Of a stretch of DNA of 59,431 bases, positions 38,339 to 46,867 are shown piece by piece; within the stretch, counting starts at the first letter, position 1, and each line of letters begins with the position of its first letter. The notes under the pieces were generated by a model that did no database searches, had not been told where the DNA came from, and worked only from the letters and a program-made list of their open reading frames with translations. The DNA comes from Myxococcota bacterium. Its GTDB lineage: Bacteria; Myxococcota_A; UBA9160; UBA6930. Both the position numbers and the translations under genes were made by a program. The stretch is from positions 1 through 59,431 of the forward strand of contig DATBRS010000246.1 of assembly GCA_036560185.1 (NCBI GenBank), written 5' to 3'.

Positions 38339-41300
38339 CTAGAACTTCTTGCTCAGGCTCACGGTGAGGGCTCGACCGATCGTGTCGAACTGGCCCGGGA
38401 ACGTGTTGCCGCTGTTCTGGTCCGTCGGACCTGCGGACTGACCCACGATCGGCGGATCCTGATCGAACACGTTGTCGACCGCGATCTGGAAGCGGAACCC
38501 ACTGAGCGCCTCGATGTCGCTCGGCTCCCAGCCCAGAGTCGCATCCACGTAGTGAATGTCCGGAATGTGCCCCGTGGTGTCCGAGACCACGCTCGCCGCG
38601 TCCTCGAAGTCCGTCGCGCGAATGTACCGCCAGCGATAGCCCATGTAGAAGTCGCCGACGTACCACGTCGTCCGCTGCTGGAAGCCGACGCTGTTGTTCG
38701 GGGAGTTACAGACCGGGCCGTAGAGTCCCTTGCACTTGTTCGTCGGAGTCAGCACGGACTGCCGATCATCGTGCTTCTCGAGGTAGGTCCCGAGGAAGCC
38801 GAAGTCGATCCGGCCCGAGTTCCCGAGATCCATCGTGTAGTCCGCTTGGAAGTCGATGCCGGAGACCTCCAGCGTGGAGATGTTCGACTCGGGCTGCAGC
38901 AGACCGTAGAGCGGGTTACCCACCAAGCCGCCCGTCAGCGGGTTGCGCTGCACGAATGCGCAGAGCTGCTGATTGGGATCCCCCGTAGGATTCACGGCCT
39001 GGTTGTAACAATTGCTGAGGATCACATCGGCGTCGAAGTTGGTGATCGCGTCGTCGATCTCGACGCGATACCAGTCGACCTGAATCGTCATTCCCTCGAG
39101 CCAGCTCGGTTGATAGACACCACCGATGGTGAGCGTCTTCGAGGTCTCCTCCTTGAGGTCCGGGTTTCCGCTCGAGAGCGAGTTGATCTGGCCGGCGATC
39201 ACGTCCGTCTGACGCGTGATCCAAACGCCGGACCCAGGCGCAGTCTCCGCGAAGAGCCCGGCAGGTGAGCCGGTCGCCACGCAGAGGTCGCGCGTATAGG
39301 TATCCAGCGGAAGCGGCACGGCATTGTTGGCCTCGGCAAAGCCCGCGCAGGGATCGCCCACCGAGTTGTCGAGGGTCGGCGTCAGCGGCTGGCTCAGCTC
39401 GAAGATGTTCGGCGCGCGCACCGCGTTCTGGTAGAGGATGCGCAGTCGGAGCTCCTCGAACGGTGAGTACTCACCGCCCACCTTGTAGGCGCTGATGCCA
39501 CCGATGGAGTTGTAGTCGGCGTAGCGATAGCCACCTTCGAACGTGAGGCTATGGACGAACGCCCTCTCCTCGAGCAACGGGATCAGGATCTCGCCGAACA
39601 CCTCCTTCGACGTCTGCTTCGCGCGCACCGACGTCGTCGAGCCGAAGCCGATGCTGCAGTCGGGCGTCTGGTAGCAGTCGTCCGGGAACGAATCCGACTT
39701 CGTGCGGCGCCACTCGAGGCCGAACGCGAGGCCGATCGGGCTGGCGCCCGGAACGTGGAACGACTCCCCGAGATCGCCATCGACGGTGAACATGATCACG
39801 TCCTGGGTCGTGTAGATCTCCTCGTTGATCTGCAGCGCGATGAAGGCCGCCGTGTCGGAGTTCAGGTTGTTGTCACCGAAGAAGTTTCCGAGCACGCAGC
39901 CCGTCGGAGCGCTCGGGAGACAAGGCCCGCCGTCCACAGCGGTCGGATTCGCGCTGAGGCTGCTGGCGTCGAGCACGGCCTGGAAGCGGCTCTTGCTGAT
40001 GTCGTTCTCGAAGATTCGCGACAGCTCGGTGCGACCGTGCTGGAACGAGAGGTCGTACGACCACCCCTCGAGCCACGGAAGGTCGCCCTTGAGGCCGCCC
40101 AGGACCTGATAGGCCTGTGTGCGGTTCCGCGTGATGCGATCGCCCACCTCGACTGTGCGGCGACCGAGCGGGTACTTCGCGGAGTCGCCGACGCCTAGCG
40201 CGCCGCTGCAGTCGGTGTCGAGGACGTCGAACGGTGTGCCGTTCAGGCTCGGGTCGTTGAAGCAGACCGGGTTCCCGAAGACGTCCTGCTGCGTGAGGCC
40301 GCTACCCGCGGCCGGATAGAGCAGCGCCTGCGATTGCGGAGTCAGGAAGATGCTGTCGAACGGGACCGCCAGCTCCGAGAAGAACGTGCCGGAGGGAGCG
40401 ATGATGGAGTCGACCTGCGTCTGCGCGAAGGTCGCGCGGCCGTACGCAGTCACGTACTCGCCGAGGTCGTAGTGAACGATGCCCGTCGCCTGATATCGCT
40501 CCTCAGGCACCTGCAGCAGGTTGAACGGATTGAAGTTGAAGCGGCGAGCGCCGCGCGGGGCCAAGTCGCCGTTCTGCAGGAAGCCGAGGCGGCCGTCCAG
40601 CGGGGTGTCGATTGCACCTTGGGTGTCCGTGGACGAGCCGAAGGGGCCTCCGCTGCCCGTGTCGATCGCGGACTCGGAGAAGACCCGGTCGCCTTGCGAG
40701 ACGGGATCCCGCTGAGTCCAACCGACGTAGATCGCCGCGTTGCCGCGCTCGTCGGCGAAATTCCCGCCCATCGTGATGCCGATGTTGTGGGTGTTCTCGC
40801 CCCCGCGGAGGGCGTTGGTGTAGTCGTAGTCGAACTGCACGCCCTCGAAGTCATCCTTGAGGACGAAGTTCACGACGCCCGCGATGGCGTCGGACCCGTA
40901 CACGGCGGACGCGCCACCGGTCACGACGTCGATGCGCTCGATCAGCGGCGCCGGGATGTTGTTCAGGTCGACGATGCCTTCGCTGTCGTAGCCGACGAAG
41001 CGCTTGCCATCGATCAGCACGAGGGTTCGCTCGTCGTCCAGACCGCGCAGGTTCACGGTGGCGACGCCAGGGTTGCCGTTGTTCATGCCCGGAGTCGACC
41101 CCGGCGCGGCCTGGGGGAGCTCACGAATGATGTCTTCGACGTTGACCGTCGCTGAGAGCTCGAGCTCCTCGGCCCCGACGATCGCGACCGGGCTGTTCGC
41201 CACCACGTCGGGCCGCTTGATGCGAGACCCGGTGACCACGATCTCTTCGGGCTGGCTCGCTGCTGGAGCCGCCGCAGGAACCGTTTGCGCGGCCGGAGCG

Positions 41301-41374
41301 TCTTGTGCCATGGCAGGCACGCTTCCCGCAAGAATGAGCGCCGCAAAGGCGACGCTGGACGTGTATCGCTTCAC
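38339..41374 (-). CDS. TonB-dependent outer-membrane receptor (1011 aa)
   Basis: Signal peptide, TonB box EEIVVTGSR, plug motif ATVNLRGL...RTLVLIDGKR...IERIDVVTGGASAVYGSDAIAGVVNF, RAPNIFEL, NPDLKEETS and a terminal Phe (SKKF). Confidence 0.96.
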   Translation of the reverse strand: MKRYTSSVAFAALILAGSVPAMAQDAPAAQTVPAAAPAASQPEEIVVTGSRIKRPDVVANSPVAIVGAEELELSATVNVEDIIRELPQAAPGSTPGMNNGNPGVATVNLRGLDDERTLVLIDGKRFVGYDSEGIVDLNNIPAPLIERIDVVTGGASAVYGSDAIAGVVNFVLKDDFEGVQFDYDYTNALRGGENTHNIGITMGGNFADERGNAAIYVGWTQRDPVSQGDRVFSESAIDTGSGGPFGSSTDTQGAIDTPLDGRLGFLQNGDLAPRGARRFNFNPFNLLQVPEERYQATGIVHYDLGEYVTAYGRATFAQTQVDSIIAPSGTFFSELAVPFDSIFLTPQSQALLYPAAGSGLTQQDVFGNPVCFNDPSLNGTPFDVLDTDCSGALGVGDSAKYPLGRRTVEVGDRITRNRTQAYQVLGGLKGDLPWLEGWSYDLSFQHGRTELSRIFENDISKSRFQAVLDASSLSANPTAVDGGPCLPSAPTGCVLGNFFGDNNLNSDTAAFIALQINEEIYTTQDVIMFTVDGDLGESFHVPGASPIGLAFGLEWRRTKSDSFPDDCYQTPDCSIGFGSTTSVRAKQTSKEVFGEILIPLLEERAFVHSLTFEGGYRYADYNSIGGISAYKVGGEYSPFEELRLRILYQNAVRAPNIFELSQPLTPTLDNSVGDPCAGFAEANNAVPLPLDTYTRDLCVATGSPAGLFAETAPGSGVWITRQTDVIAGQINSLSSGNPDLKEETSKTLTIGGVYQPSWLEGMTIQVDWYRVEIDDAITNFDADVILSNCYNQAVNPTGDPNQQLCAFVQRNPLTGGLVGNPLYGLLQPESNISTLEVSGIDFQADYTMDLGNSGRIDFGFLGTYLEKHDDRQSVLTPTNKCKGLYGPVCNSPNNSVGFQQRTTWYVGDFYMGYRWRYIRATDFEDAASVVSDTTGHIPDIHYVDATLGWEPSDIEALSGFRFQIAVDNVFDQDPPIVGQSAGPTDQNSGNTFPGQFDTIGRALTVSLSKKF

Positions 41375-41585
41375 GTGGGAACCCCTAGAGACGCGCAGCC
41401 GGTATGGCCGCGTTGGCCGCGCACCTTGCCACCAGGTTGGGGGATTTTCCAGCCTTTTTTTGAGCGCTTCTGAGGAGTTGCGCGCGACTCCGAGTCACCG
41501 CGCGAGCGCGATCGAGCACGAGTGAGTGGCTGGACGGGCCACTGTGCTCAGCACGCGACGGATTCGCGGCGACGCTTCGTCCGGA

Positions 41586-41635
41586 TGGGGCGCGAGACCG
41601 GAATCGAACCCGCAACTCTCGGCATGGGAAGGCGA
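41586..41635 (-). repeat. att-like degenerate copy of the 3' half of tRNA-Gly(CCC)
   Basis: 44 of 50 nt are identical by manual alignment to 46792-46841 in the same orientation. The copy spans the anticodon arm to the CCA end and has no D-arm. Confidence 0.88.
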
Positions 41636-41754
41636 AAGAAGCGCGAGAAAATGACGCGGGCTTGCACCGTGCGCGCCGCGAGGAGCGGCATGGCACGCAA
41701 GGCGCAGCATCCGTTCCGCTCGCACTCGTTCGCGGGTCTAGCCGTCCCGCGAGT

Positions 41755-42225
41755 TCAGTTGTCGGAATCGCGGCTTCGCTGCCGTCCCGCGACGATCCCA
41801 TCCATCTGGGATCGAATGACGTTCTGCAGGATGGCCGTCAGCGCCGCGGCGGTCATCGACATCATGAGGACGCCGTTGGCCGCCTCGAGCGGGCCGAGCA
41901 GCTTCCACTCCTGATCCATCACCACGTCGCCGTAGCCGAGGGACGTGAAGTTCACTGCCGAGTGGTAGATCTACGGGTAGAGAGACTCGAACTCGCCGAG
42001 CAGGACGAAGAGCCACCCCCACAGCGCGATCTGCAGCAAGTTGCCGGTCATCATCGCCAGCATCGAGACGGCCAGCGGCCGGACCGTCGTGAGCACCACA
42101 CCGTTGCGCGAGCCCCGCGCCGACTCTCGAGCGCAGTATCGAACGCACCAGAAGACGACTGCGACCTGCACGACGAGGCAAAGCAGCATGGCGGGTACGC
42201 CGAAAAGGAAGTTCCTGAGAGTCAT
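41755..42225 (-). pseudogene. Two-TM potassium-channel-like protein (Ion_trans_2 type) interrupted by an in-frame TAG
   Basis: ATG 42225 overlaps the DUF2955 stop. The frame reads ...GEFESLYP-TAG(41973-41971)-IYHSAVNFTSLGYGDVVM... with no shift. TSLGYGD is a pore signature. Confidence 0.8.
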
Positions 42226-43265
42226 GTCGCCTCCTCGTGGTGCCGGTGCCGCACGGGAATCTCCCGGACTAGCCCGGCTCGACGGCGTTCGAGCAGGCGG
42301 ATCATCCCCCATGCGTAGAAGGCGACCGCCACGAACAGGCCGGCGCGAACAACCGCGCCTTCGATCACGCTCTTGCCGCTCGCGCTGTCCTCGATGGCCG
42401 GGCCGATCAGGAGGAACGCCGTGATCAGGGCGTTGCTCCAGAACGCGGGCCGCATTCGCGTGTGCCGGACGCCGAACATGGCCGACCCGGTCCACAGGGC
42501 CGCCGAGACCAACCACAGCATCAGCATCCAGAGGCCGGCCCAGATCGACAGGCCAGTCCACACTCCGGCTGCGATTGCGGCTCCTGCCAGCGTCGCGCCG
42601 ACCAACTCGCCTCCGGCCGAGCGTGCATCGGTTTCTTCGGCCTGCTGTCCGAGCGCGACCGTCTTCATTACGGCCGCCAGGTAGAAGGACGGATCGGTCA
42701 GCGCGAGCACGAAGACCGGCATCACGATCAGCGTGGCCCGTACGGCGATCCACGCGGCCGCCTCCGGCTCCAGCCGCGCCTTGGTGATCGCGTCGGCAGG
42801 TGGCGGCGGGTCCGGGAACAGCGCGTGGGAGACAGCGCTCACCAGCACGCCGACGCCGACGCCGGTCGCGAGTGCGACGCTCAGCTCGCCGACCAGAGCC
42901 TGCTCCGCGACGCCAGCGACTGGGATCAGCGCGAACGACAGGACCAGCACGTTGCTGAGCGGGTTACCGCCGACCAGCCCTTTGTAGAAGAGCCCGTGCA
43001 GCACGACTGCCGTCAGCAGCGCGCCCGCGAACGCGTAGTGCTCGAGCAACGGAACCATCGCGATCCCGACCGCGACCAGTCCGGCGAGGAGGAGCGCGAC
43101 GACGAGGCCCTTCACCAGCGGGACTGGAGGCCCCGGCCTGCTCAACACGACCACGGACAGCACGCACACGACGAACGGAACCGCGAGGTCCAGCCCGTAG
43201 GCGACGAGAACCGCCAGGCCGAGCCCCACGGCCAGTCGCAGTGTCGCCTTGTCGCCGGGGCTCAC
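42222..43265 (-). CDS. DUF2955-like inner-membrane protein (FUSC-like)
   Basis: Multi-TM protein in two hydrophobic halves, with LRLAVG, LVLSFALIP and AFWSNALITAFLLIGPA. Lies between the HlyD and channel genes. Confidence 0.65.
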   Translation of the reverse strand: MSPGDKATLRLAVGLGLAVLVAYGLDLAVPFVVCVLSVVVLSRPGPPVPLVKGLVVALLLAGLVAVGIAMVPLLEHYAFAGALLTAVVLHGLFYKGLVGGNPLSNVLVLSFALIPVAGVAEQALVGELSVALATGVGVGVLVSAVSHALFPDPPPPADAITKARLEPEAAAWIAVRATLIVMPVFVLALTDPSFYLAAVMKTVALGQQAEETDARSAGGELVGATLAGAAIAAGVWTGLSIWAGLWMLMLWLVSAALWTGSAMFGVRHTRMRPAFWSNALITAFLLIGPAIEDSASGKSVIEGAVVRAGLFVAVAFYAWGMIRLLERRRAGLVREIPVRHRHHEEAT

Positions 43266-43283
43266 GACTCGCCCTCAATAGAT

Positions 43284-44405
43284 TCAATAGAGGTAGGAGA
43301 GCCAGCTCGAGACACGGATGTAGATCGCGCCGAGCACGTTCATCAGGGGGTTGTCGCCGGCGTAGACGAGCACCTCGGCCTGGCCGCCGACGTGCGCGCC
43401 CGCGAGCGACGGATTTGAGTCGGCGTCGAACTCGATCGAGACCGGGATGCGCTGGGCTTGGCGCAACCAGTCGCGATCGTTCTGCACCGTCGGCAACGAT
43501 CCCGACTGCGACTGCTGGCCGCTGTCGACTCCGCGGCCGATGCTGCGAACGCGGCCCTTCAGCACGTGGCCGGGCAGGACGTCGAGGACGATGGCCGCCT
43601 CGTCGCCGATGTCGATGTGTCCGAGGTTGTTCTCGGTCATGTCGGCGCTGATCCACAGGTCGCGATCGGCGACGAGGGTCATCACGGGCGCGCCTGCCTG
43701 CACGAAGTGGCCGACGTCGGTGCGCAGGTCCGTCACCGTGCCGCCTGCGGGAGCGAGCACGCGGGTGTTACGGAGGTCGAGCATCGCCTTGTCGAGCGCG
43801 GCGCGGGCGCCCTTCACCTGCGCGTTCGCTTCTCCGATCTCGCCGGCGGCCTCGAGCGCCATGCGCAGGTCGGCCTCGGAAGCTCGAACCTTGCTGCGCG
43901 CCTCCTCGCGCGTAGCCTGCGCGATCTCGAGGCGGCGAACCGAGATCGCGCCGGGATCCTCGGCGTACAGGCGTTCCTGGCGCTCGGCGTCACGCTCGGC
44001 CATCTCGCGATTGGCCTCGGCCACCTTCAGGGAGGCGCGCGCGCCGTCGACGCCGGCGTGGGAGGCTTCGGCAGAGTCGAGTGCGAGGGCGTAGGCGGCC
44101 TCGGCGCTTTGCTGCGCGATCTCGTACGGCACGACATCGATGTCGAAGAGGGGCTGCCCGGCCACCACCGCGTCGTTGTCGCGAATGTGGACCTTCACGA
44201 CCTTGCCCGCCGCCTCGGCCGCGACCGGCACCACGAAGGCCTGGATTCGGGCCTGAGAAGTGGAAGGCGTCAGCCGATCGCCGACCAGGTACAGCACGAG
44301 GCTAATCAGGATCAGCGTGGCGACGATCGCGGAGCCCTTGCGAGAGGCGCTCCCGGCGTCGCGATCGGCGGGCGGAGCAGGCGAAGAGTCGGGGGGTTGG
44401 TTCAC
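43284..44405 (-). CDS. HlyD/EmrA-family membrane fusion protein
   Basis: N-terminal TM, VPVAAEAAGKV, AGQPLFDID, a coiled coil, VLAPAGGTV and WLRQAQRIPV. Confidence 0.93.
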   Translation of the reverse strand: MNQPPDSSPAPPADRDAGSASRKGSAIVATLILISLVLYLVGDRLTPSTSQARIQAFVVPVAAEAAGKVVKVHIRDNDAVVAGQPLFDIDVVPYEIAQQSAEAAYALALDSAEASHAGVDGARASLKVAEANREMAERDAERQERLYAEDPGAISVRRLEIAQATREEARSKVRASEADLRMALEAAGEIGEANAQVKGARAALDKAMLDLRNTRVLAPAGGTVTDLRTDVGHFVQAGAPVMTLVADRDLWISADMTENNLGHIDIGDEAAIVLDVLPGHVLKGRVRSIGRGVDSGQQSQSGSLPTVQNDRDWLRQAQRIPVSIEFDADSNPSLAGAHVGGQAEVLVYAGDNPLMNVLGAIYIRVSSWLSYLY

Positions 44406-45958
44406 TGCGTGTCGGTCTGGTGAGGCGGCTGGGGATCTTCGGCCGCAGGCGGGAGCGGCGCGTCGAGGAGTCGCTCCCAGTTGCTGCGATCGGCCATCTC
44501 AGCGCGAGTCTCTGCATCGACGATCGGCAGCGAGCGGCCAGGCTGCCATCCGCCGCCCATCGCCTTGTATAGAGCGATCAGGCTCTGCGCGACACCGCCC
44601 TTCGTCGCCACGAGACGCTCTTGCTGGCTGAACAGTGAGCGCTGCGAGTCGAGCACCCTCTGAAAGTCCACGAGCCCTTCGCGGTACTGCACGTCGGCGA
44701 TGTCGAGGGAGCGGCGCGCCGCCTGGACCGATTCCTCGAGGATCGCGACCTGTGCGCGAAGCTGGGCGAAAGCGATGGCCGCGTCCTCCAGCTCCCGGGC
44801 CGCGCGAAGCACGGTGTCCTGGTACTGCTCGAAGAGCTGCTGAAAGCGCGCGTCCTGCACACGCACCTGATCCTTGAGCCGGTTGTAGTCGAAGTTCCAG
44901 ACGAAGGCGGGGCCGACTGCCCAGTCGACAGCGTAGGGCGATCGCATCACGGAGGATGTCGAGAGGACGAGCGAGCCGCCGAGCGCGACTGCAGGAAAGA
45001 GCTCTGACTTGCTGACCCCGATGCGGGCCGACTGAGCGGCCAGCTGGAGTTCCGCTGTGCGCACGTCCGGCCGGCGGCGCAGCAGGTCGGTCGGCATCTC
45101 GGCGACGATTCCGAGGTCTGCGTCGGGGATTCGCTCGCGCCCGACATCCAACTCCGGCAGCGGGCCGGGCGGCCGTGCGAGCAGGATCGCCAGTGCATTC
45201 TGGGTCTGGTACAGGCCGGCCTCGAGCTCCGGGATCGTCGCCAGCGTGCTCAGGTAGAGAGTGCGGGCCTGCTGCAGGTCGAGCTCGGACTCGTTGCCGC
45301 TGCGAAACAGGCGCTCCGTGATCTCGAGGCTGCGCTCCTGCAGCGCAGCGTTCTCGTGCGCGATGCGGAGGCGCAGCTCGAGGGTGCGGATGCTTGCGTA
45401 GAGGCTCGCGGCCTCGGCGGCGACGAGCACCTGAACATCGTCGTACTGGGCGATGCTCGCGAGGTAGCCTGCATCTGCGGCCTCGACGCCGCGACGGAAC
45501 CTGCCCCAGAAGTCCAGCTCCCAGATGACGTCGAGCGAGCCGGTGGCGGTCCAGAAATCCCGAGACGAGCCTTCGCCCTGCTTCGTTCCGACCCACAGGC
45601 CGTTGGCCCCGAGCTGCTGCAGCTGGGGGTAGAGGCCGCTGCCGGCGATCCCGAGCTCAGCGCGCGCCTCGAGGATCCGAAGGCCCGCGGTGCGCACGCC
45701 GGGATTCAGGCGCTGCGCCTCCTCCACGAGCTTCTCGAGCACCGCGTCGTCGAATTCGCGCCACCACTGGTCGACCTGCACCGGCCTCTGCGTGAGCGCT
45801 TCCTGCTGCGCTGCCCGCAGCGCATCGGCGGACCAGTCCTCGAGCCACGGCACGGCGGGCCGCGTGAAATCGGGACCCACGGCACACGCACCGAGGGACA
45901 GCGGGGCGAGAACGGCGACCAGCCGTCGGAGCGAACGCTTCTGCGAGGCGCCCGGCAT
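44402..45958 (-). CDS. NodT/OprM-type outer-membrane factor lipoprotein
   Basis: Lipobox LSLGAC followed by AVGPDF, plus WWREFDDAVL, WELDFWG, DLLRRRPDVRTAE and LYKAMGGGW. Confidence 0.94.
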   Translation of the reverse strand: MPGASQKRSLRRLVAVLAPLSLGACAVGPDFTRPAVPWLEDWSADALRAAQQEALTQRPVQVDQWWREFDDAVLEKLVEEAQRLNPGVRTAGLRILEARAELGIAGSGLYPQLQQLGANGLWVGTKQGEGSSRDFWTATGSLDVIWELDFWGRFRRGVEAADAGYLASIAQYDDVQVLVAAEAASLYASIRTLELRLRIAHENAALQERSLEITERLFRSGNESELDLQQARTLYLSTLATIPELEAGLYQTQNALAILLARPPGPLPELDVGRERIPDADLGIVAEMPTDLLRRRPDVRTAELQLAAQSARIGVSKSELFPAVALGGSLVLSTSSVMRSPYAVDWAVGPAFVWNFDYNRLKDQVRVQDARFQQLFEQYQDTVLRAARELEDAAIAFAQLRAQVAILEESVQAARRSLDIADVQYREGLVDFQRVLDSQRSLFSQQERLVATKGGVAQSLIALYKAMGGGWQPGRSLPIVDAETRAEMADRSNWERLLDAPLPPAAEDPQPPHQTDTQ

Positions 45959-46170
45959 GCGCTTCAGCCGGCCGTCGGAGTTCCGCCTTCCAACGCAGGA
46001 TCGTAGTTGGGTTGCGTGCTCATGGTGATCCCTCGAACGGTTGGCGCCCCGATCCATGCGATCCCGAGCGCTTGGGTGTTCCGTCGCCCGACCCGACGAG
46101 CATTGTCTCGTGTTTATAGGCCGACTTGCCAGCGGGCGGCCCAGGGAGGTGGAATACCGCCCTCAGATGA

Positions 46171-46760
46171 GGCGATAATGACTTCAACCGTGCTCGCTGT
46201 GGCGACGCCTCCGAGCGCATCGTGCTCGCCGCGATCGCGCAGCACGACGCCGGCGTGACTCGCGAGCAACTCACGGTTCTCACCGGTTAGTCGCGAATTC
46301 CCACCGCCAAAACGCGAGCCCGGCCGCTGTGTCGGCCGGCTGCTCTCGCCGCCCGCTGGCGCCACGCCCATCGTCGATCCAGAGACGCTGCCTAACAGCG
46401 GGCTGATCTGGCTCGAGAACGACACCACGACGCGGCAGGAGTTCGTCGCCCGCGTCATTGGGTCGCTCGTCGCGATCGACCTGGACCTCGCCGCCGGTTC
46501 GTGCAACCACGACTGTGTCGTGCGGCTGAGCGACGAGAAGCCGGGCGATCTCGGTGATCAGCTGACGCTGCCGTCGTGATGTGCGCGCGGAGTCATCGGT
46601 CGTCGATACCTGAGCCGCAATCACTCGACTGCGGAATGTACTCGCCGTCGATGTCTCCGGCGCCCGAACCCATCTCGAAGATGACGTTGTTGTCGACCAC
46701 ATCGGTGCCGGCGTCGCACTGCGCTGCTACGGGTCCGACTCCGCGGGCGAAGGGGCGCAA
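46171..46760. pseudogene. Mosaic of unrelated gene fragments next to the tRNA
   Basis: Three short coding-like segments: + 46171-46290 (ERIVLAAIAQHDAGVTREQLTVLTG*), + 46259-46579 (no start codon near its 5' end) and - 46760-46593 (QCDAGTDVVDNNVIFEMG...). Confidence 0.4.
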
Positions 46761-46791
46761 GCGCTACCCGTGCGACTTCCCTTCGGAAAGC

Positions 46792-46867
46792 TGGAGCGCG
46801 AGACGGGAATCGAACCCGCGACACTCGGCTTGGGAAGCCGATGCTCTACCAGCTGAGCTACTCGCGC
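46792..46867 (-). tRNA. tRNA-Gly (anticodon CCC)
   Basis: 76 nt cloverleaf: acceptor GCGCGAG/CTCGCGC, D-arm GCTC/GAGC, anticodon arm TCGGC-TTCCCAA-GCCGA, T-loop TTCGATT, U73 discriminator and an encoded CCA. Confidence 0.98.

Follow-up and report, generated by a model that had tools for sequence, protein, structure and literature searches.

A degraded tRNA-Gly(CCC) genomic island carrying an efflux operon in a Myxococcota genome

In a metagenome-assembled genome (MAG) of a Myxococcota bacterium (GenBank assembly GCA_036560185.1), a block of 5.2 kb with a single efflux operon lies between a tRNA-Gly(CCC) gene and a gene for a TonB-dependent receptor, two neighbours that directly follow each other in several genomes of the same genus. 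How did this block come to be there, and is it still able to move? The block is part of the window, that is, the complete 59,431-bp contig C246 (DATBRS010000246.1) that was analysed here, one of the 295 contigs of a 4.3-Mb MAG that is 91.6% complete. An earlier reading of the window from its letters had taken the block for an island inserted at the tRNA and revealed by a decayed half-copy of that gene. Our analysis answers the question in the same sense: the island is very likely a fixed, decayed remnant of an integrative element specific for tRNA-Gly(CCC). Both the observation and the interpretation of this original prediction were upheld overall, with corrections concerning the count of mismatches in the half-copy and the use of base composition. 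The positions of all features are collected in Table 1.

The intact tRNA-Gly(CCC) was found by both ARAGORN and Rfam and is the sole tRNA of the window; the Rfam scan of the window gave no match besides it. Repeat search and pairwise alignment located a copy of its 3′ part in the same orientation and, in the 50-nt form first described (41586-41635), reproduced the 44 of 50 identical positions. When the whole 4.3-Mb assembly was searched, this copy matched the tRNA with E = 2e-11, and thus it is not a chance resemblance. The sequence of the window tRNA-Gly(CCC) is identical in six congeners, and in G001, which belongs to the same genus, the equivalent repeat is a perfect 46-mer covering tRNA positions 31-76. 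At tRNA position 30 a G is replaced by C in the window half-copy, and the same base is present in the element-side arm of G001. This position therefore belongs to the arm of the element, and the true core of the attachment (att) site is 46 nt, not 50 nt. The six mismatches counted in the original prediction are real, but only five of them, those within the 46-nt attR core of the window, represent decay, judging from the comparison with the G001 element. Two of these substitutions disrupt the T stem and one falls in the anticodon-loop segment.

The empty site that the prediction had proposed to look for in relatives was present in six same-genus genomes (G008, G006, G004, G007, G005, and G002, the last being the most distant of the six), in which an AAA-ATPase gene is followed by tRNA-Gly(CCC), a spacer of 195-341 bp, and the TonB receptor. 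The ATPase encoded upstream of the tRNA is of the PEP-CTERM type, and the order from it to tRNA-Gly(CCC) is conserved family-wide; in G008 and G002 the remainder of the left-hand gene order of the window, beyond the TonB receptor, is also conserved. The alignment of the flanks is continuous, and the half-copy in the window occupies exactly the position of the tRNA 3′ end in the relatives. Taken together with the intact tRNA and the dead copy, this alignment shows that 5.2 kb was inserted into the tRNA gene, that a functional tRNA was regenerated, and that the 3′ copy was displaced.

Both inner ends of the insert carry the arms of an element. On the tRNA side, the stub at the attL arm encodes ...VRLPFGK, as does the end of the G001 integrase, and it is absent from the empty-site relatives. 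On the other side, the attR arm extends over ~88 nt, of which the stretch common to the window and G001 is GCAAGCCCGCGTCAYTTCTCRCGCTTCTTTCGC. The G001 element itself has an integrase and a perfect 46/46 repeat, and its far end was found on contig C43, where the repeat precedes the TonB gene and its leader.

Elements of this kind occupy the same tRNA in other genomes. In G001, G020, and G011, a tyrosine integrase lies directly beside the tRNA 3′ end and converges on the tRNA. In G061 (MAG MFD05942.bin.2.61, labelled 'uncultured delta proteobacterium'), which a scan of reference genomes gave as one further carrier of the DUF2955 gene of the cargo, an integrase (PF00589, 5e-27) also adjoins tRNA-Gly(CCC); the four integrases show 32-45% pairwise identity. 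The G020 island is 10.8 kb long with a 45-nt perfect repeat, and the G061 island is 24.65 kb long, has a perfect 47-nt repeat at its far end, and contains inside it the efflux module that is also found in the window. Thus, the footprint of tRNA-targeted integration that had been claimed for the window is matched by intact homologous elements with an integrase and perfect 45-47-nt repeats in G001, G020, and G061. The G061 island opens a tandem array (C6 285900-321831; L063, L064), being followed by integrase-less segments of 2.1 kb and 9 kb. The boundaries of the array are near-perfect repeats of 47, 45, and 45 nt, and C-terminal stubs of integrase genes lie behind repeats 1 and 3, which indicates serial integration and decay.

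The integrase open reading frames (ORFs) of G001 (L044, G001:C66, 1210-2640) and G020 (L040, 5079-6704) extend across the att core into the tRNA, antisense to its 3′ half. Because of this overlap the last codons would change with the state of the element, the predicted ends being ...GRRKKREK in the excised form (attP) versus ...GSRCSTS in the integrated form (attL). The G061 integrase ends short of the tRNA and has no overlap with the att core. A different arrangement was observed in G023 (L046, G023:C10; 13828-15261), where an integrase of another class is flanked by the full tRNA-Gly(CCC) on one side and by a copy of tRNA positions 1-40 on the other. The insert of ~1.3 kb consists of the integrase only, and the tRNA half that it duplicates is the 5′ one, not the 3′ one.

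The integrase of the window island has been lost, as the original prediction had stated, and only the 61-nt 3′ stub is left. Searches with tblastn, using five site-specific integrases of relatives, and with Pfam revealed no integrase remnant in the island beyond that stub, and tblastn with the five integrases found no cognate (G001/G061-type) integrase in the 91.6%-complete MAG. The tyrosine recombinases of the MAG are Xer-like, together with one of integron type, and show at most 30% identity. Where a tRNA island has a tyrosine integrase adjoining the tRNA, the window has the 61-nt stub alone; the window copy is a remnant of a member of this class and not a functional member. The integron-type integrase was located on a 3.9-kb contig (C291:2612-3748, minus strand) and was the sole non-Xer tyrosine recombinase found in the MAG. 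A second decayed copy of tRNA-Gly(CCC), comprising the T arm, acceptor stem, and CCA (39/45), was seen on another contig of the same genome (C50:595-639; L013/L006). It lies directly 3′ of the stop codon of a gene for a PEP-CTERM-tailed protein, with no tRNA or integrase close by, and may be another old att scar.

Table 1. Positions of the island and its neighbours in the window.
Feature	Position	Strand	Remarks
TonB-dependent receptor	38339-41374		Syntenic orthologue in congeners
Ancestral tRNA-to-TonB intergenic leader	41375-41585	-	211 bp; aligns with the spacer of empty-site congeners
attR core, displaced copy of tRNA positions 31-76	41586-41631	-	41/46 matching
attR (distal) arm	41632-41719	-	Homologue in the G001 element adjoins the perfect attR on its inner side
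Small K-channel-like gene (Ion_trans_2)	41755-42225	-	In-frame TAG
DUF2955 inner-membrane protein, presumed pump component	42222-43265	-	
HlyD-family periplasmic adaptor	43284-44405	-	PF16576, PF13437; MdtN/EmrA are the best NCBIfam matches, below cut-off
Outer-membrane efflux factor (OMF), NodT family lipoprotein type	44402-45961	-	PF02321; TIGR01845, 299 bits vs 210-bit cut-off
AI-2E family transporter gene remnant	45967-46142	-	~53 nt upstream, first ~86 nt and last ~27 nt of the gene
Orphan segment	46143-46729	.	Plus-strand coding-like GC periodicity at ~46400-46580
Integrase 3′-end stub = attL arm	46730-46791	+	82% identity, over 61 nt, with the terminus of the G001 integrase ORF
attL core, 3′ 46 nt of tRNA-Gly(CCC)	46792-46837	-	
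Intact tRNA-Gly(CCC)	46792-46867	-	ARAGORN and Rfam; sole tRNA in the window

The cargo consists of the genes for an OMF, a periplasmic adaptor, a DUF2955 inner-membrane protein, and a small K-channel-like protein. The adaptor matched the MdtN model with 1.2e-53, which is below the cut-off of that model, and the DUF2955 protein matched its family with 4e-9 over the N-terminal 140 residues, while no NCBIfam model matched it. The DUF2955 gene was absent in 39 of the 40 relatives searched and present in G002, with 89% amino-acid identity, at a locus far from the empty tRNA site of that genome. Over the interval 41745-45993 of the window, the nucleotide identity of the module is 88.6% to G002 and 86.9% to G061. 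Between the window and G002, synonymous divergence (dS) of the module genes is 0.22-0.26, whereas four core genes compared between these two genomes have 0.43-0.85. Since dS of the module lies below that of the core genes, the module was shared more recently than the two genomes diverged, and on this comparison the efflux cargo is of foreign origin. The ratio of nonsynonymous to synonymous divergence (dN/dS) of the module between the window and G002 is 0.25-0.32, which indicates that the three pump genes evolved under purifying selection. A wider scan of metagenome contigs gave only ~2-kb contigs, and an exact-protein look-up gave no match.

Other parts of the island have decayed. An AI-2E family transporter gene heads the module in both G002 and G061, and relative to both of them the window has a 1,074-bp internal deletion in this gene, with the junction at 45994-45997. 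As a consequence, the ORF of the OMF has gained an in-frame N-terminal extension, so that the longest ORF spans 44402-46057 and begins with the first codons of the deleted AI-2E gene (MDRGANRS...). The true start of the OMF is probably the ATG at 45961, ahead of the lipoprotein signal. In the channel gene, an in-frame TAG (41971-41973) stands directly before the TSLGYGD pore motif, and codon periodicity persists beyond it; the copy in G002 is intact. The ~730 bp adjoining the tRNA had no family match. For the orphan segment within it, no homologue was found with Pfam and PHROGs at permissive thresholds, by tblastn against its own genome, by a DNA search of 60 relatives, or in a collection of 5.8 billion proteins; tblastx comparisons were disregarded because of floods of spurious matches at 70% GC. 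The coding-like GC periodicity of this segment suggests that it is probably the remnant of a decayed gene of the element. The picture of fragment debris around a single efflux operon, as drawn in the original prediction, thus corresponds to the AI-2E remnant, the channel gene truncated by TAG, the orphan segment, and the three-gene operon.

Based on this anatomy, the history of the locus may be reconstructed as follows. A tyrosine integrase of the G001/G061 type would have acted on the chromosomal tRNA gene and on an attP core of 46 nt with the sequence of tRNA positions 31-76 (anticodon loop to CCA). Recombination between the two would have restored the tRNA at attL and placed a duplicate of its 3′ part at attR, ahead of the leader of the TonB receptor. 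The element would have brought a transferable module with it or gained one later through recombination with a related island; this module comprised the AI-2E transporter, the OMF, the MdtN/EmrA-like adaptor, the DUF2955 membrane protein, and the small K-channel-like protein. Decay followed: deletions spared no more than the final ~61 nt of the integrase gene and cut out the inner part of the AI-2E gene, the channel gene gained a stop codon, and the attR core gathered its 5 substitutions in 46 nt. At present the island would no longer be able to excise, while selection maintains a three-gene tripartite efflux operon resembling MdtNOP/AaeAB. The divergence of attR (5/46) and the absent cognate integrase together argue that the island is immobile, in agreement with the prediction of an old, immobilised, and reduced element, to which the integrase stub, the AI-2E deletion, and the channel TAG also conform.

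Some observations weigh against this reconstruction. As part of the genome is missing from the MAG, an integrase could lie on a missing contig. Relative to the tRNA, the module points the other way from that in the G061 island; simple deletion could therefore not have produced the window from the G061 arrangement, and the cargo may have entered in a second recombination event. No recognisable island surrounds the module copy of G002, and the 587-bp orphan segment is not explained by this reconstruction. The efflux module may have arrived together with the element or have been exchanged into it at a later stage. The incompleteness of the MAG also bears on the alternative, raised in the original prediction, that the island is an integrase-less satellite still excisable in trans, by an integrase from a related element that is encoded on the missing 8% or was transiently present. 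The 2.1- and 9-kb segments of G061, which have near-perfect 45-nt repeats and stand in tandem behind an integrase-bearing island, lend some weight to it, since they show that integrase-less units with usable att sites do occur among these elements. However, the assembly has only Xer-like and integron-type recombinases of at most 30% identity, and the lack of a cognate integrase in a 92%-complete MAG makes mobilisation in trans unlikely. The attR core is mismatched at 5 of 46 positions, including one within the anticodon-loop segment, while the repeats of relatives that look active are perfect; the AI-2E deletion and the channel TAG point to long residence. We therefore disfavour this alternative and regard it as very improbable.

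It could also be argued that the efflux block is ancestral at this site and disappeared from the relatives through precise excision or deletion. Precise excision by an integrase restores an empty site, and hence the empty sites by themselves give no direction of the event. This explanation would nevertheless need at least six independent losses, and it is contradicted by the dS of the module to G002 (0.22-0.26), two- to four-fold under that of core genes in the same genome pair, as well as by the presence of the module elsewhere in G002, whose tRNA site is empty; it is very improbable. Finally, the source MAG is fragmented into 295 contigs, so that an assembly or binning artefact might be suspected, in which a chimeric contig was joined at a tRNA-like sequence and the island is not truly here. 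With 6 differences in 50 positions, the repeat copies are unlikely to have caused a false join. Synteny with relatives holds on both outer sides, G001-type element arms stand at the two inner ends in the correct orientation, and G061, as an independent MAG, likewise carries the module at tRNA-Gly(CCC). We consider a chimera to be extremely improbable, and a fixed, decayed remnant of a tRNA-Gly(CCC) element remains by far our preferred explanation.

Base composition, which had been suggested as a further check, was of limited help. The tetranucleotide deviation of the island is 0.253 (mean 0.15, sd 0.054), a modest departure, but that of the TonB receptor gene is 0.325, the most deviant of the contig, and the GC content of the same gene (0.648) is the contig minimum. 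With a conserved gene departing further than the island itself, composition cannot serve to diagnose the island. The low-GC TonB receptor gene was considered as an island gene and rejected, as it is syntenic in the congeners, where its orthologues show 58-65% amino-acid identity. Given this synteny and conservation, its composition is no sign of recent transfer. Upstream of the receptor, ~110-125 nt from its start, a palindrome (41484-41498, minus strand, GTGACTCGGAGTCGC) is kept in most congeners. It is followed by an A-rich block and a conserved leader, GGTGGCA...CCAACGCGGCCAT..CCGGCTGCGCGT; the palindrome had no Rfam match and is likely an operator or leader.

In comparison with known systems, the island belongs to the textbook class of tRNA-targeted genomic islands and is degraded; it is well documented but ordinary, and reveals no new mechanism. 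Islands inserted at tRNA genes by tyrosine integrases, with att cores running from the anticodon loop to the 3′ end, have been catalogued in many bacteria. The window shares with them the insertion in the 3′ part of a tRNA that is regenerated and the direct repeat from the anticodon loop to CCA, of 45-50 nt. The integrase of intact relatives that adjoins and converges on the tRNA, the accessory cargo, the empty sites, and the tandem arrays are further common features. Unlike intact islands, the island described here has no integrase except for 61 nt, its attR is decayed, and it measures only 5.2 kb with a single operon. Cis-mobilisable elements (CIMEs) are integrase-less islands bounded by att sites that were described beside integrative and conjugative elements of streptococci. 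Like a CIME, the window island lacks a recombination module of its own, is bounded by att-derived repeats, and stems from an integrase-bearing element or was accreted with one; the tandem array of G061 resembles CIMEs as well. A CIME, however, depends on att sites that are intact and on a cognate integrase resident in the genome, whereas the window has five mismatches in the attR core and no cognate integrase was found in the MAG. Functionally, the island is closest to a dead CIME.

The overlap of the G001 and G020 integrase ORFs with the att core recalls IntP/IntX of myxophage Mx8, whose host also belongs to Myxococcota and whose attP is inside the int coding sequence (PMC6070905). This similarity does not extend to G061, which has no such overlap; in the window just the stub is left. 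No phage genes were seen with the element. The G061 integrase is at most ~30% identical to phage integrases in the collection, and neither Mx8 nor Mx9, the latter a phage that may use tRNA-Gly, is among the top matches; a phage link was rejected, as this is the level of identity to generic phage integrases and no special relationship in sequence was seen.

The operon itself is similar in gene set and order to MdtNOP and AaeAB of E. coli, which comprise an adaptor, an inner-membrane protein of the FUSC/ArAE type, and an OMF. The adaptor is best matched by MdtN, the OMF is of NodT type, and the membrane protein is not of the RND, ABC, or MFS class. In contrast to those systems, the inner-membrane component matches DUF2955 alone, a K-channel-like gene is added, and an AI-2E transporter is present in the other genomes.

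On a wider scale, tRNA-Gly(CCC) downstream of the PEP-CTERM-type ATPase might be a family-wide landing pad, at which one integrase family builds tandem arrays and CIME-like integrase-less derivatives arise regularly, while islands shuttle the efflux module between lineages, the window being a case of cargo domesticated after the loss of mobility. We put this forward as a speculative extension that is rather doubtful at present. For annotation, the island explains why an operon interrupts an otherwise conserved neighbourhood of tRNA and TonB receptor, and the case advises caution, as base composition by itself would have singled out the wrong gene, that of the TonB receptor. Taken together, the related Myxococcota MAGs display the life cycle of a tRNA island, from the empty site through intact elements and tandem arrays to the decayed, fixed remnant in the window, and they show an unusual DUF2955-type efflux operon spreading between lineages and then becoming a permanent chromosomal gene set.

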